Part shown: positions 1 to 18,262 of the stretch, in pieces
How the letters are laid out: each line of letters starts with the position of its first letter
Numbering within the stretch: position 1 is the stretch's first letter
Source: an uncultured Rhodospirillaceae bacterium
GTDB taxonomy: Bacteria > Pseudomonadota > Alphaproteobacteria > GCA-2746255
DNA length: 25,860 nt
Reading direction: 5' to 3'
NCBI GenBank assembly: GCA_964435655.1
Contig: CAYTAE010000003.1
Location: forward strand, 1 to 25,860
Position numbers and translations under genes: made by a program
The notes under the pieces: generated by a model
Told to the model about the DNA's origin: nothing
Database searches by the model: none
What the model saw: the letters and a program-made list of their open reading frames with translations, nothing else

Positions 1-1
1 A

Positions 2-289
2 GGCGTGACGTACCGAATAGCCGAACAACGCCTTCATGCGAATGCGGCAAGTGTCACCCTGACCTACGTCTTCCGTCCCAGCGAAACAACCTTTCCACCC
101 TTCTTCGACCAGGCGTTGATTGCCAGGCTTGCCGCAGAATTCACCATCCCAATCACCGAAAGCACAAGTCGCTCGGAAGTCCTTTTTCGCCTTGCAGAAA
201 AAGAGATCCGAAATGCCCGCATGATTGATTCGCAGCAGGAAACACCGACCGCGATTGAGGACTTCACACTCGTCGGGGTGCGAAGCTAA
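2..289 (+). CDS. Tail tubular protein A / adaptor (T7 gp11-like), C-terminal part, truncated by window edge
   Basis: Frame is open from the window edge. FPPFFDQALIARLAAEF...ARMIDSQQ resembles gp11-like adaptor C-termini. The stop overlaps the next ATG (TAATG 287-291). Confidence 0.7.
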   Translation, partial: GVTYRIAEQRLHANAASVTLTYVFRPSETTFPPFFDQALIARLAAEFTIPITESTSRSEVLFRLAEKEIRNARMIDSQQETPTAIEDFTLVGVRS

Positions 290-2193
290 TGCCGCGAATT
301 CACAAAACAAAGGCGAGCTTCACCGCCGGCGAACTATCGCCACTTCTTTATGGCCGTAGTGACCTTCGCGCCTATGCCAATGGAGCGGCAAAATTACGCA
401 ACACGTTTATCTTTCCAACGGGTGGGGTGCAACGGCGGGCCGGACTGCGTTTCATCGACACGGCATTAGGCACCGGCAGGTTGGTCGCCTTCGAATTTAA
501 TACCGAGCAGGTCTACCTGCTCGTCTTTACCGATTTTAAGATAGATGTTTACCGCGACGGGCAGTGGGTTGCGGAATTCGCGACACCATGGAGTGCGGCG
601 ATGCTTCCCCAGATCAACTGGACGCAAAGTGCCGACACCCTTCTTGTCGTTCACCCGGACGCTATTCCACACAACATTACTCGGACATCGGATACGGCCT
701 GGGTGATCAATACGTGGAGATATGTGACAGATGCCGAAGGCATGCATCAGCCTTATTTCAAATTTGCCGACGAAACCATTCAGATGCAGCCAAGCGCGAC
801 GACCGGCACCATCACCCTGACAACCACGGACGATGTCTTTGTCAGCGGTCATGGCGGGCTACGATTTCGAATTGAGGAGAAGGAAGTCACGATCCTCGGC
901 ATTATTTCCCCAACCCAGGCAACCGCCAGCGTCCTGGAGACCTTGAATTCAACCAATTTCACCAAGGACTGGGACGAACCGGCCTTTTCCAATGCACATG
1001 GCTATCCGGTTTCCGTCGCCTTTCATCAAGACCGCCTGATCGTTGGCGGGTCCCGGGACCTTCCGAACCGGCTCTGGATGTCGAAATCCTCCGACATCTT
1101 CAACTTCAATATCGGCACCGGGCTTGACGATGAAGCAATCGAGTTTGGGATCCTTTCCGATCAGGTCAACGCCATTCGCGCGGTCTTCTCTGGCCGACAT
1201 TTGCAAGTCTTTACCTCTGGTGCCGAATGGATGGTAACAGGCGATCCGCTAACACCGACGACGGTGCAGTTGCGCCGCCAAACCCGGGTCGGCTCCCCCA
1301 TCGACCGCACCCTGCCGCCAATCAACGTCGATGGGGCAACGCTATTTCTCGCGCGGAACAACAAGGAAATACGGGAGTTTCTTTTCACGGATGTCGAGCA
1401 GGCTTATCAGGCAAACGATCTGGCCCTGCTGTCCCAACATTTGATGAATACACCCGTCGATCAGGATTTCGACCAATCCCGCCGACTTGTGCATATCGTT
1501 ATGAACGATGGCAACCTTGCCACGGTAACTGCCTTTCGGGCCGAACAGGTGACCGCCTGGACGTTGCAGGAAACGGATGGAAGTTTTCTTTCCGTCGCGG
1601 TGGTTGGCAATGACGTTTACGTTCTTGTTCAGCGCGACGGCGGCATTCTGATTGAACAATTTGATGAAAGTTTCTACACCGATTCGGCGCTTAGCGGTCA
1701 AAGCGGCACACCCACAACCACCTGGAGTGGACTCGATCACCTGGAAGGCGAGACGGTAAAAATTATTGCCGATGGAATCTTTCAACAGGATGCCATCGTA
1801 GCCGGCGGTGGCATTACCCTTGACGAACCGGCATCAAGCGTCGAAATCGGCCTGCCCTACACCCATGTTATCGAACCCCTGCCGCCCACCTTCGACGGCG
1901 CGTTCGGCAATCGCCAAGGGGCGGCCCTGCGGCTCATCGAAGCCGCCTTTCATCTCCACGAGACGAAGGCGTTGCGCGTCGATGTCGGCAATGGATTAAA
2001 GGAACTTTCCTTCAAGTCGCTGGGCGTTCCCAGCATTTTGGACACTGCCCCAATCGCCTTTACCGGCAACAAGCGGGTCCGCGCCCTCGGCTGGAAAGCA
2101 ACAGGGGCGGCCCCCCTTTGGCGCATTGCACAGGACACGCCGGTTCCCTTCACCCTTTTGTCCGTCACAACCGAAACCATGGTGAACGACTAA
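289..2193 (+). CDS. Tail tubular protein B / nozzle (T7 gp12, P22 gp10, BPP-1-like)
   Basis: 634 aa; N-terminal SFTAGELSPLLYGRSDL...GGVQRRAG motif typical of podovirus nozzle proteins; YPVSVAFHQDRL and RLWMSKSSDIFNF beta-propeller-like segments. Confidence 0.85.
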   Translation: MPRIHKTKASFTAGELSPLLYGRSDLRAYANGAAKLRNTFIFPTGGVQRRAGLRFIDTALGTGRLVAFEFNTEQVYLLVFTDFKIDVYRDGQWVAEFATPWSAAMLPQINWTQSADTLLVVHPDAIPHNITRTSDTAWVINTWRYVTDAEGMHQPYFKFADETIQMQPSATTGTITLTTTDDVFVSGHGGLRFRIEEKEVTILGIISPTQATASVLETLNSTNFTKDWDEPAFSNAHGYPVSVAFHQDRLIVGGSRDLPNRLWMSKSSDIFNFNIGTGLDDEAIEFGILSDQVNAIRAVFSGRHLQVFTSGAEWMVTGDPLTPTTVQLRRQTRVGSPIDRTLPPINVDGATLFLARNNKEIREFLFTDVEQAYQANDLALLSQHLMNTPVDQDFDQSRRLVHIVMNDGNLATVTAFRAEQVTAWTLQETDGSFLSVAVVGNDVYVLVQRDGGILIEQFDESFYTDSALSGQSGTPTTTWSGLDHLEGETVKIIADGIFQQDAIVAGGGITLDEPASSVEIGLPYTHVIEPLPPTFDGAFGNRQGAALRLIEAAFHLHETKALRVDVGNGLKELSFKSLGVPSILDTAPIAFTGNKRVRALGWKATGAAPLWRIAQDTPVPFTLLSVTTETMVND

Positions 2194-2666
2194 TGGCAGC
2201 TTTAGCTACGATTGCAACGCTTGGTCTCAACATTTTTTCTGCACAACAGCAGGCGCGCGCCCAATCAAAACAAAACCTGGCGCAATTTGCCGCAAACGAC
2301 GCCGCTGCCAAAGCGCAAATTGCCGCCCTTCAGAGGACCGGCACGATTGAGGAACAACGCCGCCGCGATCTTTTGGAAAAAGAAACCGCCGCCCGACGCG
2401 CCCGTTTCGCCGGGCGGGGGCTTGCGGCTAGCGACGGCTCTGCTGCCGCAGTCCTTGGCGGGCTGGCAGAGGAAAGTCGGCTGGCGAACCGGGAAGACGC
2501 CTTCCTTCGCAACGAACGCATCCGTGAACTGGAAGCGGTGCGGCTGGCAAGGGGACGCATCGACCTTTTACAAGCAGCAGATGCCAGGGCGCGCGGGCGG
2601 CTGCAGACACTTCAGGGAGGCATCCCCCTCCTGCAAAGAGCCGGCACGTCCCTGTTCGACCGCTAA
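2193..2666 (+). CDS. Internal virion / ejection protein-like (T7 gp14-like), 157 aa
   Basis: Start moved to ATG 2193 (TAATG coupling). Ala/Gln-rich helical protein with hydrophobic N-terminus and RARFAGRG...DGSAAAVL motif; position after the nozzle gene fits. Confidence 0.55.
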   Translation: MAALATIATLGLNIFSAQQQARAQSKQNLAQFAANDAAAKAQIAALQRTGTIEEQRRRDLLEKETAARRARFAGRGLAASDGSAAAVLGGLAEESRLANREDAFLRNERIRELEAVRLARGRIDLLQAADARARGRLQTLQGGIPLLQRAGTSLFDR

Positions 2667-2703
2667 TCCAAAAACAACCCCATAACCGGAAGAGGTTTCA
2701 AGC

Positions 2704-3840
2704 ATGACTGAACTCACCGTCGGTGACGTACGGCCACGCGTGCAATATACGGCCGATGGCACACAGACAATTTTCGCCTATCCCTTCCCCGTTTTTGACG
2801 CCACCGATATCGAAGTCTTTTTCGACGATGGCGCAACGCCGACGTCCCACACAATTACTGACGTCGGCAGCAGCAATGGCGGCACCGTTGTTTTCGATAC
2901 ACCGCCCACAAATGGCATCCGCCTTACCATCCGACGCGATGCGCCGGTCGCACGTAGTACAGATTTTCAGGAAGGCGGTGATTTTCGGGCCACCGCCCTC
3001 AACGAAGAACTCGATAAACTGACGATGTTCGTGCAAACAATTGCAAGCACTTCGCAAGACGCAATCCACCAAAAAACCCACGACATCGATACCGACATGG
3101 CCCTGCCGCCGGTTGCAACACGGGCAAACAAGCTGCTTGGTTTTGGGCAGTTTGGCGAACCTGCGGCTTATGACCGCGCCGCAACGGAAGCCGACCCCAG
3201 CCTTGGCGGCGAGTCGAATGAAGGCCTAAATCTGGGTGGTGGTGAAGGCGTCTTTGCACAAAAATCCGCGGTTACCCTGCGCTTCAAATCCCTGCTTGCC
3301 GGCGATGGCGTCAGCCTTGCCTCGGATGCGAACGAAATCACCCTTTCCGGCACCGAGCTTGACCTGCTCACCACCCAGGGAGATCTGATCGCCCAGGGCG
3401 CGGCAACGCCAGAACGCCTGGCATTGGGCACGGCCGATCAGGTGTTGAAGGTCAATGGGGCTGGAACAGACCTCGGCTGGGAAACGCTAAAGACTCTTGC
3501 CGGGGCGTCGGTTGATTTTCAGACCTTCGCGATCGCAACGGATGCGGCGGTAAGCCTTACCCCTCCAAAAAACAGCGGCATCGCCCTTGCATTCGGCCTG
3601 AATCAGCTTGGCGATTCGGGCGGCGCGCTCTTTTCCTGGCGCGTGGATAGTTTTCGTTTTTGCGATTTAATCGCGAACATTTCCGGCGTCGAAGCAACAA
3701 CCGGCATCTTGACCGGCACGACGGGAAACACAAACACCGTCACCTATTCGGCCCATACGGACGGCAAGCTTTACATCGAAAACCGGCTTGCCAGCACCCG
3801 CAACATCGCCGTCCTGCTGTTCGCCACGGACCCTGCTTAA
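2704..3840 (+). CDS. Short tail fibre with T7 gp17-like N-terminal attachment domain
   Basis: 378 aa; YTADGTQTIFAYPFPVF...LTIRRDAP...DFQEGGDFRATALNEELDKLTM matches the gp17-type anchor; RBS GAAGAGG upstream. Confidence 0.8.
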   Translation: MTELTVGDVRPRVQYTADGTQTIFAYPFPVFDATDIEVFFDDGATPTSHTITDVGSSNGGTVVFDTPPTNGIRLTIRRDAPVARSTDFQEGGDFRATALNEELDKLTMFVQTIASTSQDAIHQKTHDIDTDMALPPVATRANKLLGFGQFGEPAAYDRAATEADPSLGGESNEGLNLGGGEGVFAQKSAVTLRFKSLLAGDGVSLASDANEITLSGTELDLLTTQGDLIAQGAATPERLALGTADQVLKVNGAGTDLGWETLKTLAGASVDFQTFAIATDAAVSLTPPKNSGIALAFGLNQLGDSGGALFSWRVDSFRFCDLIANISGVEATTGILTGTTGNTNTVTYSAHTDGKLYIENRLASTRNIAVLLFATDPA

Positions 3841-4136
3841 TGACAAAGAGAATGCGCACCCTGCGCGGGCAGATCCATGCTGCCCTTCCCGGCCTGATGG
3901 AAAAGGCGCTGATCGGCTATCGCCATTTCGCCGCCGAAACGCAGCCACGGGACCCCAAAGGCTTTGCCGCCCATCACGCTGCGTGTCGCGCCGCACTTTC
4001 CCACATGGAATTGCTGGTTCGACTCGCGCGTTGGGCAGAAACGAACGAAGGCAACGACGAGGAAATAAATGAAGACATGGCAAAGCTGATTGCCGAAGCG
4101 CGCACAGCCCTGACGGATATGGTTGATGAGGAATGA
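3840..4136 (+). CDS. 98-aa helical protein; candidate terminase small subunit
   Basis: Start ATG 3840 (TAATG overlap with the fibre stop); ATGA overlap with terL; basic N-terminus, acidic C-terminus. Function inferred from position only. Confidence 0.5.
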   Translation: MTKRMRTLRGQIHAALPGLMEKALIGYRHFAAETQPRDPKGFAAHHAACRAALSHMELLVRLARWAETNEGNDEEINEDMAKLIAEARTALTDMVDEE

Positions 4137-5605
4137 GCCAGCCGACATTCCCGGAATTCATCTGGCTGTGGAACCGCCTGCAAAATCTGTCCACGCCAAA
4201 ACTTCACCTGGAGATGGCAAGCTGGCTAGACGCACGCTGGCAGGCCGGCGACCGTGAACTTCTTCTGCTTGCCTTCCGCGATAGCGGAAAATCGACGCTC
4301 GCAGGCCTCTTTGCTGCCTGGCTGCTGAGCAACGACCGGAATTTGCGCATCCTCGTCCTTGCCGCCGAGCAGGAACTGGCAAACAAAATGGTGCGCAACG
4401 TCAAACAGATCATCGAACGCCACCCTCTGACCCGGGGTCTGAAACCAAAGCGGGCCGACCAATGGGCCGCGTCCCGGTTTACCGTCAACCGGCCGATGCG
4501 GCTTCGCGATCCGTCCATGCTTGGGCGCGGCATCAACGCGAACGTGACCGGAAGCCGGGCAGACGTTGTTCTTTGCGACGACGTTGAAGTGCCAAACACC
4601 TGCGACACACTTCCAAAGCGCGTAGATTTGCGTGTGAGACTTGCCGAAATTGACTATGTGCTGGTGCCAAACGGCCTGCAGCTCTACATCGGAACACCAC
4701 ACACCTATTACACGGTCTACGGGGAAACCCCACAGCCGGAAGCTGGTGAAACCCGGGCATTCCTCGAAGGGTTCAAACGGCTGGAGCTGCCGCTGCTCGA
4801 TAACGATGGAAAAAGCCGCTGGCCGGAACGTTTTTCCACGCAAAAGATTGCCGCCATCAAACGCCGCAGCGGGCCGAATAAATTCGCCAGCCAGATGCTG
4901 TTGCGCGCGGTGAACATCATGGAAAGCCGCCTCGACCCGGACCGCCTACGCCTTTACGAAGGCGAACTGAAGTACCGCGAATCAAACCGGGTGGCGACCC
5001 TGACCCTTGAAGGGAAGCGGCTGGTTTCCGCAAGCTGCTGGTGGGACCCCGCCTTCGGCGCGCCGGAACGCGGGGACAAGAACGTCATTGCCGCCGTCTA
5101 TACGGATGAAGAAGGCGGCTATTGGTTGCATCGCGTGCGTTACTTCGTCTGGGACCCGAAATCGAAAGACGATGAAGCCACCCAGCTTTGCCGCCAGGTA
5201 ACGAGATTTTTAAAAGAGCTGCACCTGCCGAGCATGCATCTGGAAACGAACGGGCTTGGGCGCTTTCTTCCCGGTCTGCTGCGACGCGAAATTGCAAAAG
5301 ACGGCCTTGGCACCAGTGTTCTTGAGGCCGTTTCGACGCGCGCCAAAGACCGGCGCATTCTTGATGCGTTCGACGCCGTGCTTGCGGCAGGTGCCCTGCA
5401 CGCCCATCGAAGCGTCTGGGAAACCCCGTTCATCACCGAAATGCGCGAGTGGCAACCCGGCTTGCATGTTCAAGACGACGGCCTTGATGCTGTCAGCGGC
5501 TGTTTGCTTGCCGAACCCGTCCGCCTGCCCGTCACCCCGGCACCAAACCGGCAGGACTGGCGCGGCAACGCCCCCGTCATCGCAAAAATGAATTTTAAGG
5601 TTTGA
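4133..5605 (+). CDS. terL: Terminase large subunit, T7 gp19-like
   Basis: 490 aa; Walker A AFRDSGKST, TGSRADVVLCDDVE (Walker B), coupling motif YIGTPH, nuclease acidic motifs WWDPAFG, LETNG and DDGLDAV. Confidence 0.92.
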   Translation: MSQPTFPEFIWLWNRLQNLSTPKLHLEMASWLDARWQAGDRELLLLAFRDSGKSTLAGLFAAWLLSNDRNLRILVLAAEQELANKMVRNVKQIIERHPLTRGLKPKRADQWAASRFTVNRPMRLRDPSMLGRGINANVTGSRADVVLCDDVEVPNTCDTLPKRVDLRVRLAEIDYVLVPNGLQLYIGTPHTYYTVYGETPQPEAGETRAFLEGFKRLELPLLDNDGKSRWPERFSTQKIAAIKRRSGPNKFASQMLLRAVNIMESRLDPDRLRLYEGELKYRESNRVATLTLEGKRLVSASCWWDPAFGAPERGDKNVIAAVYTDEEGGYWLHRVRYFVWDPKSKDDEATQLCRQVTRFLKELHLPSMHLETNGLGRFLPGLLRREIAKDGLGTSVLEAVSTRAKDRRILDAFDAVLAAGALHAHRSVWETPFITEMREWQPGLHVQDDGLDAVSGCLLAEPVRLPVTPAPNRQDWRGNAPVIAKMNFKV

Positions 5606-5619
5606 ATCAGGAGACCCAC

Positions 5620-5922
5620 ATGCAACCTCATTGGAACGCCGATCTTATTTGGTGGATCACCGCCGTCGAAATTCCAGCACTTGCCGGTTTGTTCTGGCTT
5701 ATCTGGCGCGCCCGTGGCGAATGGCAGGAATCCCTGCTACGCCTGCATCGCATTTTCGAAGAAGGGATCGACGCCCATCGTGACACCCTTGCCGCCTTCA
5801 AACTGGAAGTCGCAAAATCCTATGCGTCGATCGCCCTTCTGAAAGATGTCGAAAACCGGATCACGCGGCATTTGCAGCGGATCGAGGACAAGCTCGACAA
5901 TCAGATCCAGAGGCGGCGATGA
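5620..5922 (+). CDS. 100-aa single-TM plus coiled-coil protein (holin-like or lysis accessory)
   Basis: Start reassigned to ATG 5620 behind RBS CAGGAG; TM segment LIWWITAVEIPALAGLFWLIW followed by heptad-like LKDVENRITRHLQRIEDKLD. Confidence 0.6.
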   Translation: MQPHWNADLIWWITAVEIPALAGLFWLIWRARGEWQESLLRLHRIFEEGIDAHRDTLAAFKLEVAKSYASIALLKDVENRITRHLQRIEDKLDNQIQRRR

Positions 5923-6344
5923 ACGCCCGGGAAAATGCGCGGGAAAGCACGCGGCAGCTTGCCCGGCTGTTGGCAACGACGATCTGTGTGGAAAGCCAGG
6001 TCCACGCCCGCAAATCCCACCCGGGCAATGTCCGCGACATGGAGGCCATTGCGGCCACAATCCTGAACCGCGCCGCTCGGGAAAGGGAAAGCGGGATGCG
6101 CGGGAACCGTTGCGCACAAATTTGCCACGAAAATCTAGCGGCCCATTCGTTTGAACAAAACACGGACACGCCGCTGTTTAACATTGCCCTTCGCATTGCC
6201 ACGCGCGCCCTTGCCGGCGTGCTTGTTGACCCGACCGAAGGCGCCACCCGGTTTCATCCACGCAGCTGCTTTCCGGTCTGGGCCAAGGGCTGCACGCCCA
6301 CAGCCGAGATTGGCAACCACCTTTACTATCGGGAGGAACTTTAG
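5919..6344 (+). CDS. SleB/Hydrolase_2-like cell wall hydrolase (divergent)
   Basis: LATTICVE (catalytic Glu position), MEAIAATILNR, DPTEGATRFH, WAKG...IGNHLYY; the family QFS segment is not visible. Confidence 0.75.
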   Translation: MNARENARESTRQLARLLATTICVESQVHARKSHPGNVRDMEAIAATILNRAARERESGMRGNRCAQICHENLAAHSFEQNTDTPLFNIALRIATRALAGVLVDPTEGATRFHPRSCFPVWAKGCTPTAEIGNHLYYREEL

Positions 6345-6836
6345 ATGTTGGCCGCCCTGCTTGCCCAGATCGGGCTTCCGCTTTTAATCAACACGGTTGG
6401 CAGCGCCCTTGGCATGGTCGATCACCCGACCGCAAAATCCGCCGCCGGGGCGCTGAAAAACGTCGGCAACGCCATCGCGAAAGGCGCAATTTCACCGGAA
6501 GCCGTGCATGCGGCAAATCGGCATGTCGAACATATGGCAAAAATCGATGCCGACCGGGAAACAAAAATCTTACGGGAAATCAACCAGACGATTCGCACCG
6601 AAGTCCATTCGAACGATCCCTTTGTCCGGCGCATGCGCCCCACATTCGGCTACATTCTGGCCGCGACCTGGCTCGCCCAGATGCTAGCCGTCGCCTATGT
6701 CATTGCCTTTGAACCTGCGCGCGCCGGGTCCGTCATCGGTGCGATGGCGTCCCTGAGTGCGATCTGGAGCGTGGGCCTCGCGGTCCTTGGGATTTATGTC
6801 TACAAGCGGTCGAACGAAAAAATGGGGGCGCGTTGA
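6345..6836 (+). CDS. Holin resembling the GTA_holin_3TM family
   Basis: DPFVRRMRPTFGY motif, two C-terminal TM segments and a terminal KRSNEK tail; directly follows the hydrolase gene. Confidence 0.75.
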   Translation: MLAALLAQIGLPLLINTVGSALGMVDHPTAKSAAGALKNVGNAIAKGAISPEAVHAANRHVEHMAKIDADRETKILREINQTIRTEVHSNDPFVRRMRPTFGYILAATWLAQMLAVAYVIAFEPARAGSVIGAMASLSAIWSVGLAVLGIYVYKRSNEKMGAR

Positions 6837-6837
6837 T

Positions 6838-7041
6838 TTAACGCCCGGCCCGGGTCATCGCCTTGTAAATGGCAATCGCATTTTCCGCCGAGGACGCCCC
6901 GGCAGCCATGCCGTCTGAAATTTTCTTTTCCGAAGGCTCCGCCTCCACAAGCAAAACGCCCATGCGCTGATAGGCCGCGAACAGATCAAGCGAGAGACGG
7001 TACGCGTCGCTTGGGCCGGAACGATTGAACGAATTTTCCAT
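6838..7041 (-). CDS. 67-aa hypothetical protein
   Basis: Fills the gap between the holin and pyrD; helical PSEKKISDGMAAG...AIYKAM segment; weak RBS. Confidence 0.55.
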   Translation of the reverse strand: MENSFNRSGPSDAYRLSLDLFAAYQRMGVLLVEAEPSEKKISDGMAAGASSAENAIAIYKAMTRAGR

Positions 7042-7066
7042 AACAAAAGAGAACCTAATGGAAAAT
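7033..7066. repeat. Perfect 9-bp inverted repeat ATTTTCCAT-N16-ATGGAAAAT
   Basis: Read directly: arms 7033-7041 and 7058-7066; one arm covers the ATG of the 67-aa ORF. Confidence 0.8.
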
Positions 7067-7135
7067 CCTTACTGAAACCTTTGTCCGGGGGCGTTGCTAT
7101 CCACAGGCCATGCTTTCCGCTAGGCTGGCGGCGTT

Positions 7136-8266
7136 ATGGCATTGGGTGTTTCCGGATTTTCCAGACTTTTTGAGGCCATCGCGCCTCTGCTGCGGTGCCT
7201 GCCGCCGGAAATGGCCCATGGCCTGACCATCCGCGCGCTTTCCCTGGGCCTCGCACCACGGGGTGGCGCGCCCGACAACCCCGTCCTCGCCACCGAATGT
7301 CTGGGCTTGGCCCTTTCCAACCCGATCGGCCTTGCCGCCGGGTTCGATAAGAATGCAGAAGCCATGGACGCCATGCTTCGTTTTGGCTTTGGCTTTGTCG
7401 AAATCGGCACGGTGACGCCGCGTCCCCAGGGTGGCAACCCGCGCCCGCGCCTTTTTCGCCTTGTCGAGGACGGTGCCGTCATCAACCGCCTGGGCTTTAA
7501 CGGCGAAGGCATGGCCCGGGCCGTGGCGCGATTGCAGCGCTATCGCGAAAAATCCGCCGCCGCAAACGGCCCCAAAGCGCATGGCATGATCGGCATCAAC
7601 ATTGGCAAGAACCGCGACACGAAAGACGCGGCCAATGATTACGCCATTGCCGCAGAAGGCCTTGCCGGTCTGGCCGATTATCTGACCCTGAACGTCTCGT
7701 CCCCAAACACGCCCGGGCTTCGTGACTTGCAGGCAAAGGAAAAACTGGAAGAAATTCTGGCTCGAACCGAGGCTGCAATGGCCGAGACTGCAACCGCCAC
7801 GCCTTCCAGAAAAAAACCGCCGCTGCTTTTGAAAGTCGCCCCGGATCTGGACGCCGACACGCGCGCCGACATTGCCGCACTTGCCCTTGAAGGGCGCATC
7901 GACGGCCTGATTGTCGGCAACACGACCCTTTCCCGGCCCGAACATCTGCAAAGCCCACGGCGAACGGAAGCGGGCGGCTTAAGCGGCCGGCCCCTCTTCC
8001 CCCTTGCGACCGCCTGCCTGTCTGATTTCTACCGGCTGACGGAGGGCCGCGTGCCCTTGATCGGCACCGGCGGCATCGCCAGCGGCGAGGCGGCGTATGA
8101 AAAAATTCGCGCCGGTGCGTCCCTGGTGCAGCTTTATACGGCGTTGATCTATGAAGGGCCGGGGCTTGTCCTGCGCATCAAGGCCGACCTTGCCCGGCTT
8201 CTCCGCCGCGACGGCTTTTCTCATGTGAGCGAGGCCGTTGGAAGCGCCCACCGCGACGGCAAGTAA
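7136..8266 (+). CDS. pyrD: Dihydroorotate dehydrogenase (quinone), class 2
   Basis: GLAAGFDKNAE, GTVTPRPQGGNPRPRLFRL, INRLGFN, NVSSPNTPGLRDLQ and GGLSG motifs; exact start uncertain. Confidence 0.97.
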   Translation: MALGVSGFSRLFEAIAPLLRCLPPEMAHGLTIRALSLGLAPRGGAPDNPVLATECLGLALSNPIGLAAGFDKNAEAMDAMLRFGFGFVEIGTVTPRPQGGNPRPRLFRLVEDGAVINRLGFNGEGMARAVARLQRYREKSAAANGPKAHGMIGINIGKNRDTKDAANDYAIAAEGLAGLADYLTLNVSSPNTPGLRDLQAKEKLEEILARTEAAMAETATATPSRKKPPLLLKVAPDLDADTRADIAALALEGRIDGLIVGNTTLSRPEHLQSPRRTEAGGLSGRPLFPLATACLSDFYRLTEGRVPLIGTGGIASGEAAYEKIRAGASLVQLYTALIYEGPGLVLRIKADLARLLRRDGFSHVSEAVGSAHRDGK

Positions 8267-8327: not shown

Positions 8328-9962
8328 TTAGAATGCCGGCTCTTGCGGCATCATCGGCGGCGCCATCTTGCCGGGATCTTCTTCCGGCTTTTCGGCAACC
8401 ATCGCTTCTGTCGTGACCATAAGACCCGAGATTGAAGCGGCATCCTGAAGGGCGATCCGCACGACCTTCGCAGGATCAATGATCCCCGATTTGATCATGT
8501 TGACATATTTCGCCGTCTGGGCATTGAAACCAAGATTGTGGTCTTTGCCCTCAAGAAGCTTGCCCGCAACAACCGCACCATCTTCGCCTGCATTCGCAGC
8601 AATCTGGCGAGCTGGCGCTTCAAGCGCCCGGCGAACAATCTCAACGCCAACCTTCTGGTCTGGGTTGCCGGTCTTCACCTTGTCAAGCACACGCGTTGCG
8701 TAAAGAAGCGCCGACCCACCACCGGGGACAACGCCTTCCTCAACTGCCGCGCGCGTTGCATTCAACGCATCGTCAACGAGGTCTTTCCGCTCTTTCACGG
8801 CCGCTTCCGTTGCGCCACCGACGCGGATAACCGCCACACCGCCAGCAAGCTTGGCCAGACGTTCCTGCAGCTTCTCCTTGTCATATTCAGACGTCGTATC
8901 CCCAATCTGAGTACGGATCTGCGTGCAACGTGCCTTGATGTCGCCTTTCTTGCCGGCGCCATCGACGATCGTCGTCTCTTCCTTCGTGGCGCTGATCATC
9001 CGGGCGGTTCCAAGCATCGAAAGCGTAACGTTTTCGAGCTTGATTCCCAGATCCTCGGAAATCACCTGACCACCGGTCAAAATGGCGACATCTTCAAGCA
9101 TGGCTTTCCGACGATCGCCAAACCCGGGTGCCTTCAGGCCAAGAACCTTAAGACCACCACGCAGCTTGTTGACAACCAGAGTGGCAAGCGCCTCGCCTTC
9201 GATGTCTTCGGCGATCAGTACAAGCGGACGGCTCGCCTGCATGGCCGCTTCGAGAAGCGGCAGAATTGGCTGCAGGCTGGTGAGCTTGCCTTCATTGAGA
9301 AGAATGTAGGGATTTTCCAGCTCACAGATCATGCGATCCGGGTTGGTGACGAAATAAGGTGAAACATAGCCACGATCAAACTGCATGCCTTCAACGACAT
9401 CCAGCTCATCGTTCAGGCCCTTCGCCTCTTCGACGGTGATCACGCCTTCCTTACCGACCCGCTCCATGGCTTCGGCAATTTTGTCGCCGATTTCTGATTC
9501 GCCATTCGCCGAGATCGTGCCGACCTGCTTGACTTCCTTGCTGGTCGAAACCTTCTTTGCGTGCTTTTGAACATCCGCAACGGCGGCCTCAACGGCCAGA
9601 TCAATCCCGCGACGAAGATCCATCGGGTTCATGCCGGCGGCAACCGCCTTCACGCCTTCCCGCAGGATCGCATGGGCAAGCACGGTCGCCGTCGTCGTGC
9701 CGTCGCCGGCCTCGTCATTTGTACGACTTGCAACCGAACGCACCATCTGTGCGCCCATGTTTTCAAATTTGTCTTCCAGGTCAATTTCATTGGCAACCGT
9801 CACACCGTCCTTGGTGATGCGGGGCGTACCAAATGCCTTGTCCAGAACGACCGTGCGGCCCTTTGGCCCCAACGTCACCCGAACGGCATTTGCAAGCGTT
9901 TCGACGCCGCGCAGCATCCGCGTGCGCGCATCCACATTAAATAGAACTTCCTTCGCAGCCAT
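8328..9962 (-). CDS. groL: Chaperonin GroEL (divergent; no GGM tail)
   Basis: 544 aa; [42 protein letters not shown] and APGFGDRRK motifs. Confidence 0.99.
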
Positions 9963-13214: not shown

Positions 13215-13939
13215 TCGTTTCTGGCCCAGCTTGCCTTGTGAATGCCGCATTCCGTTTTACCGTTTTCCGCCCAGCGACCGGCACGCGCTGCGTCGCCTGG
13301 GTTTACCCGTCGCGTGCAATGGGTGCAACCGATAGAAAGATAGCCATCTGCGACCAGGGGGTGAGGTGGCAGGCCCCGGTCCTTGAACGCCGCAACAATT
13401 TCGTCCGAAGTCCAACGCACCAGCGGATTAATTTTAATTTTTCCGTCCGACGCCTCGATCACCGGCAAAGTGGCGCGCACGTCGCCGTGAAACCGCTTGC
13501 GACCGGTGATCCACGCATCAAAACCGGCAAGAACCCGGTCAAGCGGGCGCACCTTGCGAAGGTCACAGCATGCGTCCCCGTCGCGGGACCATAATTCCCC
13601 ATCGGAATCTTCCGTTGCAAGTTCTGCCGCGTCGGGCCGGATTACCCGGACGTCGCGCAACCCCAGCTGCGCGACCAGTGCATCCCGGTAGCGGAGGGTT
13701 TCATCAAAAAGTTTTTGCGTATCCAGAAAAAAGACCGGCGTTTCCGGATCAATGCTTGCGACCAGATCCAGCAGCACCGCCGCCTCCGCCCCAAACGAGG
13801 ACATAAGGGCAATCTGACCCGGAAATTCGCGCGTGAGCATGACACGGAGAAGCGCCAACCCATCAAGATCTCCGTAAGCCTCCATAAGAGCCGCTGCACG
13901 CGCGGCGGCCTGGGCCTCTGTTTGCAAAAGCTCTGTCAT
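13211..13939 (-). CDS. cysH: Adenylylsulfate (APS)-type reductase CysH with [4Fe-4S] ligand motifs
   Basis: [42 protein letters not shown] and terminal ECGIH. Confidence 0.95.
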
Positions 13940-13974
13940 TTTGGCGCCATCCTAGTCGATGTTGCGGCAAGGCC

Positions 13975-14086
13975 TATTTAACAGAATAAATATGTTAAAT
14001 AAATTATATTTACACATATATTAGGTTATTTAAAAGAAAGATAACATATCTCAATGTAGTTTCCATGAAAATTACTTATATTTTAT
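13975..14086. promoter_or_regulatory. Very AT-rich upstream region of cysH with dyad TATTTAACA-N9-TGTTAAATA (13975-14001)
   Basis: Hand count 18 G/C in 112 nt (about 16% GC) in a GC-rich background; perfect 9-bp inverted repeat. Confidence 0.65.
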
Positions 14087-14192
14087 GTGGAATAGGCCGA
14101 ACCCAGAGGCGTTCCAGCGACCTTCTAAGCCCCTTCGATTTGGCAGCAGGCCGCACACCCCTTTCAAGGCACGACGTTTTTGTTTTAGGACT

Positions 14193-14567
14193 TCAGGAAA
14201 TGTCGTTGAGAGCCTGACGCAGGACCTTGATGCGAATTGGCTTCTTAAGACTTTGCACGCAAGGAAGACCAAAGGCATCGCCCAGAGAACGGGCGCTTTC
14301 CAGCAATTTTCCGCTATAGCCACTCATCACCAGGATTGGAATCTTGCATCCATCTTCCGCCAGATGGCGCAAAATCTCGATCCCATCGATTTCCGGCATC
14401 ACAAGATCCAGAACAAGAACCGTTGGCTTAAAGCTCGCAACCGCCTCCTTAAACGCCTCGGGGTCGATTGTCGTTGAAACCTCAAATCCCTCGCCCTCGG
14501 CAACCTCGCGAATGAGGTTGCAGATTTCCTGTTCGTCATCAATAACCAGGAGGCGTTTTAACGGCAT
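14193..14567 (-). CDS. Stand-alone response-regulator receiver domain (124 aa)
   Basis: VIDDE, VLDLVMP (phosphoacceptor Asp), MSG and KKP motifs; start at ATG 14567 behind RBS AGGAG. Confidence 0.92.
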   Translation of the reverse strand: MPLKRLLVIDDEQEICNLIREVAEGEGFEVSTTIDPEAFKEAVASFKPTVLVLDLVMPEIDGIEILRHLAEDGCKIPILVMSGYSGKLLESARSLGDAFGLPCVQSLKKPIRIKVLRQALNDIS

Positions 14568-14670
14568 GCGTTTTTCTCCTGTGGCCATGCGCCACATGAA
14601 ACCATATCCCTTTATAGGCAGAGCCACCTATAAAATAGGTAAACAAAAAGCGGTTGCAATCGCATTCCTT

Positions 14671-14688
14671 AAAAAAATATATTTTTTT
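14671..14688. repeat. Perfect 18-bp A/T palindrome AAAAAAATATATTTTTTT
   Basis: Read directly, in the divergent receiver/ctaA intergenic region. Confidence 0.8.
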
Positions 14689-14704
14689 TAAAACGAGACA
14701 AACA

Positions 14705-15745
14705 ATGGCCGGAACCATTCCAGTTCAAAACGCTGCCCGCGAACGACCGCTCGCGATCTGGCTTTTCCTGTGTGCAGGGCTTGTCTTCATCATGGTCATT
14801 CTGGGTGGCGCCACCCGGTTGAACCAGGCCGGACTTTCCATGGTTGAATGGCAACCGCTGATGGGCATTCTGCCGCCGCTTTCAGAACCCGAATGGCAGG
14901 AAACCTTCACGGCCTATCAAAATTTTCCTGAATATCAAAAGCGCAATTTCGGCATGACCCTTGGCGAATTCCAGGGGATCTTCTGGCTGGAATATGTGCA
15001 CCGTCTATGGGGACGGCTGATTGGCGCCGCCTTCTTTTTCCCATTTCTCTATTTCTGGTTTCGGGGAAGGATCAACGCCCAACATCTCCCCCGGCTGCTT
15101 GGGGTTTTTTCCCTTGGCGCATTACAAGGCTGGCTTGGCTGGTACATGGTGCAAAGCGGCCTGGTGGATAGCCCGGATGTTAGCCCCTATCGCCTCGCCG
15201 CTCACCTAACCCTGGCACTCTGCATCTATGCCCTTCTTTTCCGCATCGGCCTTGGCTTTCTTCATCTGCCGAAAGGCACCTTGCCGCGCGCGCTTTTCCA
15301 AACCATCGCGCGCAGCCTTCTGGGAGTCGTTGCCCTGACGGTGATTGCCGGTGCCTTCGTTGCCGGCACCGATGCCGGCCTGACTTACAACACCTTCCCA
15401 CGGATGGGGGCGGGCCTTGTTCCGGAAGATTATTGGGCCCTGGAACCTGCCTGGCGAAATTTCTTTGAGAACATTCCAAGCGTCCAGTTCAACCATCGGC
15501 TCCTTGGTATTTTCAGCCTAGTCAGCATCGGCGCCGTCTGGCTTTTTTCCTGGCGCGAAACGCTTTCGAAACGCGCCTGCACGGCGCTAACGCTTCTTTG
15601 CATCATGACCGTTCTGCAAGTCGGGCTTGGCATTGCCACGCTTCTTCTTGTTGTGCCGGTACCACTTGGCGTTGCCCATCAGGCGGGGGCGCTTCTACTC
15701 CTTACCCTCGCCCTATGGACCGACCAGGAAATGCGCCCGGCATAA
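14705..15745 (+). CDS. ctaA: Heme A synthase, COX15/CtaA type
   Basis: GGATRLNQAGLSMVEW, EYVHRLWGR, RLAAHL, QFNHR and HQAGA motifs; start set at ATG 14705. Confidence 0.95.
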   Translation: MAGTIPVQNAARERPLAIWLFLCAGLVFIMVILGGATRLNQAGLSMVEWQPLMGILPPLSEPEWQETFTAYQNFPEYQKRNFGMTLGEFQGIFWLEYVHRLWGRLIGAAFFFPFLYFWFRGRINAQHLPRLLGVFSLGALQGWLGWYMVQSGLVDSPDVSPYRLAAHLTLALCIYALLFRIGLGFLHLPKGTLPRALFQTIARSLLGVVALTVIAGAFVAGTDAGLTYNTFPRMGAGLVPEDYWALEPAWRNFFENIPSVQFNHRLLGIFSLVSIGAVWLFSWRETLSKRACTALTLLCIMTVLQVGLGIATLLLVVPVPLGVAHQAGALLLLTLALWTDQEMRPA

Positions 15746-16472: not shown

Positions 16473-16517
16473 ACAACGCAAGCGCCAAGACGCGACCACC
16501 AAAAGACGCGTCTGCCA

Positions 16518-17096: not shown

Positions 17097-17581
17097 GCCT
17101 CTTTCCTTTTTCCAAAAATTCGGGCCACCGCAATGGCGCAAATTGCCAAACCAGTGGACATAATCGCATTCACCCCTGCCATCGACAGGCCGAGAAAAGT
17201 CCAGGCAATTTCATCACACCGCGCCGGTTGCATGTTTAAAAGGGACTGCCGCAACGCGTCCAGGCTTTCGCTGGCTTCAACACCGCCACAGGAAGCCGCA
17301 ACCCAGCCTTGCTCGACACCCACATGATAAAGGGCCAGCAGACCATTGCCGAAAAAGAGAGCGGCAAGAAGAAGCAACACCCCGACCGCCGCGCGCCGAT
17401 GGGGCGAGACAAAAAAGGCACCAAGGGCAACGCCCGCTGCCAAGCCATAGGGCACGCGTTGATACAGACAAAGGACGCAGGGCTTTAACCCGCCCAGAAA
17501 TTCAAAGCCATAGGCCGTCGCCAGCACGGCCAGGCTGACCCCAAAAAACCCAAGAAATACCAGTCTTGGTGCAAGCGTCAT
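17093..17581 (-). CDS. dsbB: Disulfide bond formation protein B
   Basis: Four TM segments, PCVLCLYQR motif, second periplasmic Cys pair (ASC...ARCD) and FLGLSMAG. Confidence 0.92.
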   Translation of the reverse strand: MTLAPRLVFLGFFGVSLAVLATAYGFEFLGGLKPCVLCLYQRVPYGLAAGVALGAFFVSPHRRAAVGVLLLLAALFFGNGLLALYHVGVEQGWVAASCGGVEASESLDALRQSLLNMQPARCDEIAWTFLGLSMAGVNAIMSTGLAICAIAVARIFGKRKEA

Positions 17582-18159: not shown

Positions 18160-18262
18160 GTCCCGCACCTCCTGATCCAGGCCGCATCCGTATTTGCCTG
18201 GCCCCAATAGAACGCCGAAGGCCATGCGCGCGCAAGCCCTCAGACTTTGATGCGTCTCACCA

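Follow-up and report, generated by a model that had tools for sequence, protein, structure and literature searches.

A T7-type podoviral gene cluster in the chromosomes of Rhodospirillales-like bacteria as a candidate gene transfer agent

The 25,860-nt stretch of DNA analysed here (the window) carries the right-hand half, or distal two thirds, of a ~13 kb T7-type podoviral locus in the chromosome, whose genes encode phage head, tail, DNA packaging and lysis functions. We hold with moderate confidence that this is a domesticated, non-autonomous element that descends from a T7-supergroup podovirus, was domesticated by the host lineage and is a candidate gene transfer agent (GTA). Its product is probably a short-tailed, GTA-like particle that is new to the literature, as our search found no prior description of the element. 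An earlier note on this DNA had cautiously proposed a podoviral GTA candidate, or some other kind of domesticated viriform, separate from RcGTA; that proposal stands.

Nine intact, translationally coupled genes occupy positions 2-6836 of the + strand, each where that note had placed it, the first being cut by the window edge. None of the nine ORFs contains an internal stop. Of the eight gene junctions, one is a gap of 37 nt; at the other seven the genes abut or overlap by 1-4 nt. The cut gene (2..289, +) supplies the last 95 codons of tail tubular protein A, a gp11-like adaptor (phrog_394 tail protein, E 2e-14); the fragment covers profile positions 95-188 of 190 and shares 79% identity with the complete 189-aa gene of a close relative (L003), the gene start lying left of the window. 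Next come tail tubular protein B, or nozzle (634 aa; 289..2193, +; phrog_376, E 4e-147; PDB 8ck1_A 'Tail Nozzle', E 6e-62), found at 64 of 80 TerL loci, and a small internal virion protein of 157 aa (2193..2666, +; phrog_418 'internal virion protein', E 3e-5). The latter is the sole internal or ejection-type protein of the element; comparison with T7 gp13 and gp14 detected no similarity, a PDB search gave no match, and the Pelagibacter phage Hodr has a 159-aa gene after its nozzle that is also assigned to phrog_418. The 378-aa tail fibre (2704..3840, +) has a T7-fibre-type N-terminal tail-attachment domain (phrog_1640, E 5e-31, residues 4-115; Pfam PF03906 at E 9e-4, under the family cutoff). 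Its C-terminal part differs among lineages, and the gene is missing from the cluster in gut and Geminicoccaceae lineages.

The fibre gene is followed by the packaging genes. A 98-aa protein (3840..4136, +; phrog_31793, unknown function, E 4e-24) had been noted as a putative small terminase (TerS). The coupling stands, as its stop codon overlaps the TerL start (ATGA), and the TerS identity is a candidate assignment from position: T7 gp18 falls into another PHROG, a PDB sequence search gave no match, and its AlphaFold model (pLDDT 80.5, three long helices) gave no significant match in structure searches of PDB and BFVD. The T7-type large terminase TerL (490 aa; 4133..5605, +) contains ATPase and nuclease domains and is matched by NCBIfam NF033889 termin_lrg_T7 (433 bits, cutoff 150), phrog_38 (E 4e-72) and T7 gp19 in PDB (4bij, 8dgc; E 4e-23). 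Its Walker A (G52-K53-S54-T55) and Walker B (D149-D150-E152) residues and its nuclease residues (D305, E371, D448, D452) are at least 97% conserved across 87 family members. A membrane-anchored coiled-coil protein of 100-106 aa (5602..5922, +; phrog_29007, E 4e-28), starting at TTG 5602 or ATG 5620, has an N-terminal hydrophobic helix before the coiled coil; its gene is kept 3' of TerL in 43 loci, and its adjacency to the lysis genes makes an i-spanin-like or lysis accessory role possible. The SleB/Hydrolase_2 cell-wall hydrolase (5919..6344, +; Pfam PF07486, E 2e-8, above cutoff; phrog_938 endolysin) is a probable endolysin and the fastest-evolving gene of the set (dN/dS 0.27-0.48). A 3TM holin (6345..6836, +; Pfam PF11351 GTA_holin_3TM, E 2e-12; phrog_3427 holin, E 8e-11) ends the operon. 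It does belong to the GTA-associated family named earlier, but that name is not diagnostic of a GTA because the family (phrog_3427) is also present in ordinary phages. As had been reported, one small ORF (67 aa; 6838..7041, -), convergent with the operon, separates the holin from pyrD (dihydroorotate dehydrogenase; 7136..8266, +; Pfam PF01180, E 5e-84), the right-hand chromosomal flank outside the element. This ORF has no Pfam family, is conserved at 45-54% amino acid identity in the same position in the two closest relatives (L003/L083 and L004), and could belong either to the element or to its flank.

The left half absent from the window is supplied by the closest complete relative (OZ252220.1; TerL 83% identical), in which the element sits between lysK and pyrD. 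Since the window lacks this half, the completeness of its own copy is inferred from relatives at ~80% amino acid identity. The portal, scaffold and capsid genes predicted upstream by the earlier note are present there, together with two small genes of unknown function and a CI/LexA-like repressor, which corrects its expectation that no repressor would be present. In relatives the full order runs from a divergent CI/LexA-like HTH-S24 repressor through two small element-specific genes (F20 and u130), portal, a small gene, scaffold, capsid and another small gene to tail tubular A, nozzle, small internal protein, fibre, 98-aa protein, TerL, membrane protein, endolysin and holin, an order that virtually every locus shares among the 80 TerL and 80 portal loci. 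The complete locus encodes neither an integrase or excisionase nor a primase-helicase or a polymerase for DNA or RNA. Nor did the 8 kb upstream of the OZ252220.1 repressor contain an integrase, att repeat or replication module, which together would have pointed to a complete prophage; they hold lysK, a GGDEF/EAL gene, phaR and genes for a PhaC-like hydrolase and a thiolase. The 19 kb 3' of the element in the window carry pyrD, groES/EL, cysNC/D/H, ctaA, COQ7, dsbB and tRNA-Leu, and no direct repeats flank the element. A dif/terminus site was considered and rejected, as GC skew is monotonic over the whole window. The element therefore has no viral means of excision, replication or spread and is inherited with the chromosome.

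The cluster was seen in ~155 species-level genomes of Rhodospirillales-like bacteria, including Azospirillum, Magnetospirillum, Defluviicoccus, Micavibrio, Geminicoccaceae and gut Alphaproteobacteria (>510 portal candidates; 2629 TerL proteins at E <= 1e-30), with portals 57-69% identical to that of the window's closest complete relative. In IMG/VR, 26 contigs of the element are classed as viral; they hold the same genes and nothing more. Rather than the strain-level patchiness and incongruent gene tree against which the earlier note had set its proposal, we found that a neighbour-joining portal tree recovers host genera and families: Azospirillum, Defluviicoccus, Micavibrio, Geminicoccaceae and gut clades, and the Magnetospirillum group as one clade, within which Terasakiella PR1 and several MAGs also fall. 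The flanks are likewise shared by several families, with lysK immediately upstream in at least 16 loci and pyrD 0.3-2.5 kb 3' of the lysis genes in 11 (that of the window and 10 related ones). Divergence of lysK correlates with that of the portal (Mantel r=0.46) and divergence of pyrD with that of TerL (r=0.85; both p=5e-4), and amino acid divergence between the window and L003/L004 is the same for element genes (67-83%) as for flanking host genes (69-85%). Element dN/dS is as low as anticipated, at 0.03-0.17 in Azospirillum (where dS is unsaturated) and 0.04-0.19 in Defluviicoccus, matching neighbouring host genes; such purifying selection, taken alone, would be compatible with an active phage too. 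GC3 confirms the host-like composition first judged by eye and shows the element to be fully ameliorated (0.59-0.70, against 0.58-0.70 in 12 of 13 host genes measured within the window, the exception being a DUF898 gene in a low-GC region, 0.54).

The element has also been lost repeatedly, often with the repressor alone remaining. Around lysK, 10 of 64 informative genomes retain it, whereas in 27 pyrD lies within 6 kb and the structural genes are absent; a lone repressor is found in ~15 of those 27 genomes and in ~18 of all 64, and one genome is a visible deletion remnant. One remnant (L245) has lost all structural genes and kept the lysis genes, Azospirillum brasilense ATCC 49958 has a deletion from capsid to TerL, and a few copies contain stop codons. 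Gene order is rearranged in six loci (L033, L042, L141, L148, L154 and L156). Scaffold and capsid genes lie <300 nt apart in 47 of 96 loci; in 23 loci the distance is 2-8 kb, and the gaps contain genes for a BCCT transporter, a Na+/H+ antiporter, an MCP, histidine kinases, a GGDEF-EAL protein and a cytochrome c peroxidase, and in at least 13 loci no capsid gene lies within 6.5-9 kb. In several lineages the two halves are at least 12 kb apart, with cellular genes between them, or on different contigs, as in Magnetospirillum LM-5. Cellular genes that split the cluster, like the rearranged orders, suggest freedom from a packaging constraint and speak for domestication; because dN/dS rises to 0.15-0.5 in the split Magnetospirillum lineage, a split may be a step towards decay and is not proof of function.

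Among 125 repressors, 106 retain the S24 nucleophile motif GDSM, operator-like palindromes are present in the element, and an exact GTTC-N7-GTTC, the alphaproteobacterial LexA box, occurs in 45 of 85 promoter regions (0.35 expected) and is absent in the window lineage. A CI-type repressor wired into the SOS response is what prophages carry and tells against domestication, and with a host-type LexA box in about half of lineages the regulation looks prophage- or PBSX-like, not RcGTA-like. The repressor and LexA box, the many losses and the cellular genes inside or splitting clusters had not been foreseen by the earlier note.

Free phages are distant. Among 50,697 phage records the best TerL match is only 30% identical and the capsid is at most 48% identical to complete phage genomes; a closer capsid match (58%) lies in a 5 kb unannotated human-faecal record, which we read as a fragment of the gut-lineage element. 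Hodr, the nearest real phage (capsid 48%, portal 37% identical), encodes two large proteins 3' of its phrog_418 gene, of 783 aa and 1247 aa, the latter gp16-like, whereas the element has neither. Large ORFs at this position in other loci proved to be fibres. We read the missing gp15/gp16-like ejection proteins as streamlining.

Three other readings have to be weighed. That the locus is a PBSX- or bacteriocin-type defective phage, in which particles are made and selected for something other than gene transfer, seems unlikely to us. SOS-induced lysis would then release podovirus-like particles that kill or bind competitors, or the public good would be the DNA and nutrients freed by lysis itself; packaged DNA would be incidental and not productively delivered. 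The cleavable repressor and LexA boxes fit such PBSX-style SOS control, as do the lack of the ejection proteins needed for DNA passage across the envelope, the fibreless gut and Geminicoccaceae clusters and the lysis genes kept in L245. However, conservation of the portal, the 98-aa partner and the ATPase and nuclease sites of TerL is as strong as that of the capsid, which is unexpected if DNA packaging is unimportant; no killing mechanism is known for a short non-contractile tail without ejection proteins, and 12 structural genes are superfluous for lysis alone.

An ordinary defective prophage remnant with no host function, either young in each lineage or decaying slowly, is a rather improbable explanation. 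Recurrent loss, lone repressors, deletion remnants, occasional stop codons, the large deletion in one A. brasilense strain and the relaxed, split Magnetospirillum lineage speak for it, and site-preferring integration of related temperate podoviruses could account for the shared position. Yet no integrase or att site would serve repeated site-specific integration, the 50,697 phage records include no closely related free phage, and the genes are intact in ~155 species whose portal divergence implies a very long time, under the same selection as neighbouring housekeeping genes, with host-like GC3 and a portal tree that mirrors host taxonomy. Least credible, in our estimate very improbable, is a still-mobile, self-packaging element (a minimal temperate podovirus or a satellite) that would rely on the host or a helper phage for excision, replication and perhaps ejection proteins. 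In favour of this, the element brings a repressor and operator-like palindromes of its own, its contiguous 13 kb would presumably fit whole in a T=7-type capsid, IMG/VR classes its contigs as viral, and the Terasakiella PR-1 portal within the Magnetospirillum clade hints at occasional transfer. Against this, neither boundary shows an integrase, Rep/primase or att repeats, the chromosomal neighbours are fixed across families, the halves are separated in several lineages, and the IMG/VR contigs add no further genes; known satellites (PICI and cf-PICI) carry integrases and lack full tail sets.

If the locus is instead a domesticated element, DNA damage or another host signal would lift repression in a few cells, through RecA-stimulated self-cleavage of the S24 repressor and, in about half of lineages, through host LexA leaving the GTTC-N7-GTTC box at the operon promoter. 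Host RNA polymerase would then read the coupled operon, and scaffold, capsid and portal would assemble a procapsid. Because no replicating phage concatemer exists here, TerL would load the procapsid with cellular DNA; that T7-type terminases normally work on concatemers with terminal repeats speaks against this step. Adaptor, nozzle and fibres would close the particle, and the holin, SleB-type hydrolase and membrane protein would lyse the producer cell. With gp15/gp16 equivalents missing, delivered DNA would probably stop at the periplasm, and its further entry would depend on uptake machinery of the recipient, a proposed likeness to RcGTA, whose delivered DNA requires such machinery.

Classically, the packaging capacity of a GTA is smaller than its locus. 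The nearest solved capsid homologue is in an apparent T=7 lattice, and if the element's capsid is also T=7 (~35-40 kb), the contiguous 13 kb could be packaged whole, so this classical property may not hold. We use 'GTA' in its strict functional sense as a hypothesis for an element known here from its genes: the genomes show its gene content, non-autonomy, vertical descent and purifying selection, and from these we propose that it forms particles, packages host DNA and transfers it. Ancestral inheritance, retention under selection in ~155 species and the lack of integrase and replication genes together indicate that the locus probably gives these bacteria a GTA-like particle.

Nine open reading frames (ORFs) without internal stops filled the forward strand of the window from 2 to 6836, and seven of the eight junctions between them overlapped by 1–4 nt or abutted. 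The series began at the window edge with the C-terminal 95 residues of a truncated tail tubular A/gp11-like protein, recognized by profile search, and continued on the same strand with a nozzle (634 aa; phrog_376, E 4e-147; PDB 8ck1 ‘Tail Nozzle’, E 6e-62), an internal virion protein (157 aa; phrog_418, E 3e-5), a fibre with a T7-fibre N-terminal attachment domain (378 aa; phrog_1640, E 5e-31), a 98-aa protein whose phage family is uncharacterised (3840–4136), a T7-type large terminase (TerL; NCBIfam termin_lrg_T7, 433 bits with the cutoff at 150; PDB T7 gp19, E 4e-23), a coiled-coil protein anchored in the membrane, a SleB-type cell-wall hydrolase and a holin (GTA_holin_3TM). From 7136 onward the sequence was ordinary chromosome, carrying pyrD, groES/groEL, cysNC, cysD, cysH, a response regulator, ctaA, an esterase, COQ7, dsbB, tRNA-Leu, glycosyltransferases, DUF547, an M48 peptidase, DUF898 and a fatty-acid hydroxylase. 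In GC3, the phage-like genes (0.59–0.70) matched 12 of the 13 measured host genes (0.58–0.70), the remaining one being DUF898 in a low-GC region (0.54), and GC was likewise indistinguishable. The earlier note had described nine intact, coupled phage genes of host-like composition, and the ORFs, profile matches and GC3 bore this out.

Further features of the window were recorded alongside. A 67-aa ORF of no family on the reverse strand (6838–7041), convergent with the operon, was 45–54% conserved at the same place in two close relatives (L003 and L004). G+C was 0.48–0.52 in two stretches, versus ~0.57–0.60 in the rest: 13500–15000, which is the cysH-ctaA intergenic region including a single-domain response regulator (14193–14627, reverse strand), and 23000–24500, which holds the DUF898 and M48 peptidase genes. 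AT skew was strongly positive (maximum 0.36) from 17000 to 20500, over minus-strand dsbB, VTT-domain and glycosyltransferase genes. Because tRNA-Leu(CAA) at 18302–18388 falls within a mechanically listed ORF (17578–18435), the real start of that ORF must be further downstream. Promoter and terminator sites within 1–7400 were no commoner than in shuffled sequence.

The exact TerL sequence of the window was found on just two metagenomic contigs (3.7–3.9 kb, identical to the window), so the left half of the element was read in relatives. A TerL scan using one genome per species found 98 relatives, 80 of which were fetched; the closest was OZ252220.1 (TerL identity 83%), a complete 2.1 Mb alphaproteobacterial MAG chromosome collinear with the window across pyrD, groEL and cysNC. 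On this chromosome, the region 5′ of tubular A encoded a capsid (Pfam Phage_capsid_2, E 2e-81), a T7-type scaffold (PF05396) and a T7-type portal (PF12236, E 4e-138), with a small gene between scaffold and portal. Farther 5′ of the portal came two small genes without a family (F20 and u130) and then a divergent HTH and peptidase S24 repressor (phrog_4/CI-like), past which lay class I lysyl-tRNA synthetase (lysK), GGDEF/EAL, PhaR, PhaC-like hydrolase and thiolase genes. The whole element of OZ252220.1 occupied ~13.2 kb between lysK and pyrD. The expectation from the window had been that portal, scaffold and capsid genes would lie upstream, without integrase, repressor or replisome; in this relative the three structural genes were present and integrase and replication genes were absent, but a repressor was encoded.

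GTAs and other viriforms are marked by a lack of autonomous replication, excision and integration, and the same was seen here. No integrase, excisionase, polymerase, primase, helicase or replication genes occurred within 8 kb upstream (L083, the locus from OZ252220.1) or 19 kb downstream (the window), and the att-like direct repeats flanking L083 were merely chance-level imperfect matches. Dif/Xer-type integration was considered and rejected, as cumulative GC skew made no turn in the window. L083 also held a perfect 17-nt tandem duplication at 9918–9951, between u130 and the portal start (ATCGGCTTTCGGGAAAG x2), which may serve regulation or packaging, or may simply be a duplication.

We then sought to identify the small proteins. 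The 98-aa protein gave no match in Pfam, NCBIfam or a PDB profile search, and its AlphaFold model (83 homologues, pLDDT 80.5) was a predicted three-helix bundle with no significant PDB or BFVD neighbour. The earlier note had labelled it TerS; its position agrees with that label, the other searches added no support, and the protein is thus a candidate small terminase on positional grounds. A profile of the small internal protein matched neither T7 gp13, T7 gp14 nor any PDB entry, and its match to a 159-aa protein of Pelagibacter phage Hodr was weak (E 0.007); the two are linked by PHROG and position. F20 and u130 found nothing in Pfam, NCBIfam, PHROG or PDB, and u130 has invariant His and Cys residues. 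An o-spanin lipoprotein embedded in the membrane-protein gene was also tried and rejected, the alternative-frame ORFs having neither signal peptide nor lipobox.

Scans with TerL, portal and lysK verified the element in about 155 species-level genomes and returned several hundred further candidates. The portal scan matched at least 600 stretches, at least 510 of which were confirmed. Essentially all 80 portal loci kept a common gene order: repressor (reverse strand), F20, u130, portal, small gene, scaffold, capsid, small gene, tubular A, nozzle, internal protein, one or more fibres, 98-aa protein, TerL, membrane protein, hydrolase and holin. Carriers included Azospirillum (~19 species-level genomes, cultured strains and MAGs), cultured Magnetospirillum, Paramagnetospirillum and Phaeospirillum (including model strain AMB-1), Telmatospirillum, Caenispirillum, Terasakiella, Defluviicoccus vanus, Micavibrio aeruginosavorus, Geminicoccus, Curvivirga and Ferrovibrio, and a large clade of uncultured human and ruminant gut Alphaproteobacteria. 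The best TerL match among 50,697 phage records was 30% identical, and 2629 TerL relatives (E ≤ 1e-30) were present in the protein collection, mostly unnamed or called ‘phage terminase large subunit’.

Vertical transmission in a cellular genome, as is required of a GTA, was supported by the portal tree, the lysK and pyrD flanks and a divergence equal to that of the host flanks, with one possible exception and many losses. A neighbour-joining tree of 111 portals resolved clades for Micavibrio, Geminicoccaceae, the gut lineage, Tagaea, Defluviicoccus and Azospirillum (itself divided into the subgroups already known), and Magnetospirillum-group portals formed a single clade with several differently labelled MAGs nested within it. 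In at least 16 loci from several families, the gene directly upstream of the repressor was lysK, and at the other end the lysis genes were followed by pyrD in the window and in 10 related loci. Pairwise identities of flank and element genes were correlated (Mantel; lysK versus portal r = 0.46, pyrD versus TerL r = 0.85; p = 5e-4) and covered the same range. When the window was compared with its two closest relatives, identity was 67–83% for element genes (lower for the hydrolase, 50% to L004) and 69–85% for flanking pyrD, groEL and cysNC. The portal of the magnetotactic Terasakiella sp. PR1/PR-1 (L092) nested in the Magnetospirillum clade, and that of Terasakiella LRMN1 (L139) grouped elsewhere; in the case of PR-1 the element may have passed laterally between magnetotactic bacteria, or the record may be wrongly binned or labelled.

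Some records bore unexpected labels. MAGs labelled Alcanivorax, Mycobacteriaceae, Solirubrobacterales, Bacteroidota, Hyphomicrobiales and Methylocystaceae (L041, L079, L104, L116, L140, L143/L010) carried the element and grouped among Rhodospirillales-like sequences; mis-binning of contigs or an erroneous taxonomic label is the probable cause. A 5,084 bp ‘Bacteriophage sp.’ record from human faeces (GenBank MT838907.1) encoded a capsid 58% identical to that of L003, and judged by this capsid match alone it is probably a fragment of a gut-lineage element. The 26 IMG/VR UViGs (L166–L191) had element genes only and no extra modules, and neither they nor MT838907.1 are likely to be free viruses. 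Prophage and virus predictors already file such loci as viral, as in IMG/VR and the GenBank record, and provirus counts are inflated as a result.

Selection was estimated from dN/dS. Against L003 and L004, values in the window were 0.07–0.19 for element genes (hydrolase 0.27–0.48) and 0.07–0.21 for host neighbours, at saturated dS (~1.2–1.6); for that reason we relied on closer pairs in other genera. Azospirillum pairs (dS 0.1–0.3) gave 0.03–0.17 across repressor, F20, u130, portal, scaffold, capsid, tubular A and nozzle, Defluviicoccus gave 0.04–0.19, and the Magnetospirillum molischianum/fulvum pair gave 0.03–0.27. Every gene measured at unsaturated dS was under purifying selection. The Walker A, Walker B and nuclease acidic residues of TerL were at least 97% conserved (87 sequences), indicating that DNA translocation and cutting are still under selection.

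The element tolerated interruption. The gap between scaffold and capsid was <300 nt in 47 of 96 loci, 0.3–2 kb in 26 and 2–8 kb in 23, and in at least 13 loci no capsid gene was found within 6.5–9 kb after the scaffold; this junction is an insertion hotspot. In HF-Din02, a BCCT transporter, a Na+/H+ antiporter and a chemoreceptor were inserted and the element halves lay ~12 kb apart, and in Magnetospirillum LM-5 histidine kinases were inserted and the halves lay on two contigs of ~265 kb. Halves split in this way cannot be co-packaged. In the split Magnetospirillum lineage dN/dS was raised, to 0.15–0.5, with ORFs still open. Azospirillum insertions at the junction comprised a GGDEF-EAL gene and a cytochrome c peroxidase. 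An ORF of ~800 aa lay between scaffold and capsid in L120, L125, L127, L128, L132 and L137; it falls in the same cluster (F29) as the GGDEF-EAL gene of L083 and sits stably at one insertion point in about ten Azospirillum species. On this cluster assignment, we regard it as a putative cellular ‘cargo’ gene inherited along with the element. Gene order was rearranged in several loci, with TerL and lysis genes, or the capsid-to-nozzle block, ahead of the portal.

AMB-1 (Paramagnetospirillum magneticum, AP007255.1, ~4.691–4.700 Mb; L163 12386–21400) had rubrerythrin and thioredoxin genes after the TerL-holin block, followed by two Phage_integrase-family genes and an AAA ATPase gene. These integrase and ATPase genes probably belong to a separate island adjoining the element. 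No hydrolase gene was called between membrane protein and holin in L163.

Loss was also recurrent. Among 64 genomes informative in the lysK scan, the element followed lysK in 10, pyrD lay within 6 kb without structural genes in 27, and the neighbourhood was another one in 27. A lone repressor was kept in the lysK-pyrD interval of ~18 element-less loci (L201, L205, L207, L210, L213, L220, L222, L223, L226, L228, L236, L246, L251–L253, L260, L268, L270), with HMM scores equal to those of element-linked repressors (E about 1e-80), and about nine of these lone repressors had lost the catalytic serine. Such a repressor seems to have a role of its own, perhaps immunity against related phages or host regulation. 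In the Rhodovibrionaceae MAG HN14.bin.1 (L245 4229–6700), a deletion remnant lay directly ahead of pyrD: every gene for head, tail and terminase had been lost, and the repressor, membrane-protein, hydrolase and holin genes persisted together with a trace of F20. In Azospirillum brasilense ATCC 49958 (L123 ~15877–17000), only 138 codons of the capsid gene remained, joined to part of TerL and to the membrane-protein gene. This capsid-to-TerL deletion is internal and at the level of the strain; the genes in between are kept by other A. brasilense strains. Repeated loss together with long retention indicates that the element has been kept very long in many lineages and is dispensable in others. 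RcGTA clusters are likewise dispensable in some lineages.

Turning to regulation, the S24 nucleophile motif G-D-S-M was present in 106 of 125 repressors, including the lineage of the window; the Geminicoccaceae clade had lost it. Between repressor and F20 (median spacing 165 nt) lay palindromes resembling AGGA..TCCT and a −35 box of the TTGAC type. An exact GTTC-N7-GTTC (or its complement), which we take to be the alphaproteobacterial LexA box of SOS studies in Rhodobacter, Sinorhizobium and Caulobacter, was found in 45 of 85 loci at a median of 37 nt 5′ of F20 (shuffled sequences: mean 0.35 loci, maximum 4), and was absent from the lineage of the window. A LexA box together with a cleavable S24 repressor suggests SOS control. 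Judged by these motifs, control looks SOS-linked, as in prophages and PBSX and unlike the CtrA/GafA control of RcGTA.

We then compared the element with known systems. As in RcGTA, a phage-derived set of head, tail, terminase and lysis genes is present without integration or replication genes (PMC9662315). Both are vertically inherited in Alphaproteobacteria under purifying selection and with host-like composition, the integrity of both clusters is dispensable in some lineages, and the holin family PF11351 is the sole feature they have in common by homology. The element differs in its independent origin from a T7-supergroup podovirus, visible in portal, scaffold, tubular A and B, fibre adaptor domain and TerL, whereas RcGTA derives from an HK97-type siphovirus with prohead protease and tape measure. 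No RcGTA-like type I homology was found: protease, tape measure and tail tube were missing, and the structural genes all matched T7-supergroup podoviral families. At its head stands a CI/LexA-like repressor, often with a LexA box, in place of CtrA/GafA. Its capsid is likely larger, a homologue forming an apparent T=7 lattice, than the T=3 oblate, ~4 kb head of RcGTA. Its hosts are Rhodospirillales-like bacteria, Micavibrio, Geminicoccaceae and gut lineages, and it is known from genes alone, compared with the transfer particles of RcGTA.

T7 itself shares the order gp8-9-10-11-12-(internal proteins)-17-18-19, together with portal PF12236, scaffold PF05396, the fibre N-terminal domain and TerL NF033889. 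Unlike T7, the element has no RNA polymerase, DNA polymerase, primase-helicase or gp15/gp16, places its lysis cassette after TerL and uses a capsid of the Phage_capsid_2 family instead of the gp10 family; its small internal and 98-aa proteins had no detectable relation to T7 gp13, gp14 or gp18. Of the features that define Autographiviridae, T7-type structural and packaging genes in T7 order (8–19) were thus present, and the single-subunit RNA polymerase and replication module were absent from element and flanks. The lack of an RNA polymerase also led us to drop the idea of connecting the element with the phage ancestry of the mitochondrial RNA polymerase. In place of the gp14-gp15-gp16 ejectosome of T7, the loci examined had one 157-aa phrog_418 protein and no gp15/gp16-like ORF. 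The nearest true phage, Pelagibacter phage EXVC031P Hodr (OQ414635.1, HTVC010P-type, 34 kb), was collinear over portal (37%), scaffold, capsid (48%), a small post-capsid gene, tubular A, nozzle (33–37%) and the phrog_418 protein. After the phrog_418 gene, Hodr encodes two large proteins of the internal/ejection class that the element lacks, one of 783 aa and one of 1247 aa, the latter gp16-like and containing an endolysin domain. Large ORFs at the ejection-protein position in other loci were fibres, and clusters from gut lineages and Geminicoccaceae were without even a fibre gene. Hodr is also autonomous, with ~20 kb of further genes and a TerL of family phrog_2, whereas that of the element is T7-type.

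PICI and cf-PICI satellites have their own integrase, repressor and primase/replication module and take tail genes from a helper; the element has a repressor, no integrase or primase, and a full podoviral tail set of its own. Nor did it resemble an intact temperate prophage: of the expected modules only those for immunity, morphogenesis and lysis were present, att repeats were absent, and both ends adjoined housekeeping genes. FpGTA of Faecalibacterium prausnitzii is a GTA-like system thought to be podovirus-like, with genes in more than one operon and packaging data (Nat Commun 2026, PMC12946183). Compared by description only, its host is a Gram-positive gut bacterium, whereas the element is alphaproteobacterial, T7-type and known from sequence alone.

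This analysis establishes the gene content, the lack of genes for mobility and replication, fixation in the chromosome, divergence in step with the hosts, tolerance of interruption, and purifying selection acting on the structural, packaging and lysis genes, and the best-supported reading of the genes is that the element represents a domesticated, non-autonomous podoviral particle locus. A still-mobile, helper-dependent element and a remnant in neutral decay are both less consistent with these comparative data. The same is true of a PBSX-like function without gene transfer. PBSX of Bacillus, too, is a chromosomally fixed, non-propagating particle locus with a phage-type repressor and SOS control that ends in holin/endolysin lysis. 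PBSX is, however, a myovirus-derived locus of Firmicutes, armed with a contractile killing tail, whereas the element is podoviral, has no evident killing device and spans far deeper host divergence.

Read as a domesticated particle locus, the element has caudoviricete genes that, at gene level, are sufficient for the virion-like particle expected of a GTA (portal, scaffold, capsid, tubular A/B, fibre, TerL, lysis). DNA-filled particles would be assembled in SOS-induced cells and released by holin/hydrolase lysis. They would package cellular DNA, since there is no replicating phage genome. Delivery would stop at the periplasm because the gp15/gp16-type ejectosome is missing, and with no trans-envelope ejection apparatus, uptake functions of the recipient would probably be needed, as in RcGTA. 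The nearest solved capsid homologue, 9eg4 (E 1e-23), was deposited with seven identical chains, from which we infer a T=7 asymmetric unit. A head of T=7 size would hold ~3x the locus length, and a contiguous 13 kb locus could fit. Contiguous copies may in that case depart from the classical GTA pattern, in which the head holds less than the locus, and particles would carry long host segments.

We tentatively consider, as a possibility that is rather doubtful as a whole, that this is a second, independently domesticated and very old alphaproteobacterial GTA, the first of T7/podoviral ancestry, predating the split of Rhodospirillales-like, Micavibrio, Geminicoccaceae and gut lineages. Wired to the SOS response, it would fill T=7 heads with tens of kb of chromosomal DNA and, having shed its ejectosome, deliver only to the periplasm, from which recipient uptake machinery would import. 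To our knowledge, RcGTA-type clusters are mainly not reported from basal alphaproteobacterial orders; if the proposal is true, these orders own a transfer device moving far larger DNA segments.

Domesticated phage-particle loci are a known kind, and the podoviral T7-type family is apparently undescribed, though an earlier mention is possible: we found none in the full-text literature, a search that left subscription journals mostly outside its scope. Genetically defined systems of this kind known to us are few (RcGTA-type, Bartonella, Brachyspira, PBSX, FpGTA), and none is derived from a T7-type podovirus. The 2022 viriform classification has three GTA groups only, none podoviral (PMC9662315), and the element goes unmentioned in the Micavibrio genome paper. 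A 2012 comparison of Azospirillum genomes reported a lysozyme as the sole phage ORF in A. brasilense CBG497 (PMC3899980); the A. brasilense strains examined here do carry the cluster.

The family offers a natural experiment in domestication, spanning ejectosome loss, insertion of cellular genes, cluster splitting, loss with the repressor kept and capture by the LexA regulon. Its carriers range from organisms used as models or in applications (Azospirillum brasilense, Magnetospirillum, Defluviicoccus, Micavibrio) to uncultured human and ruminant gut Alphaproteobacteria, and because cultured, genetically tractable carriers exist, the question is directly testable. Should the particles contain host DNA, they would contribute host reads to viromes, and soil, aquatic and gut communities would have in them a major unrecognised means of exchanging genes, or of lysis set off by the SOS response.
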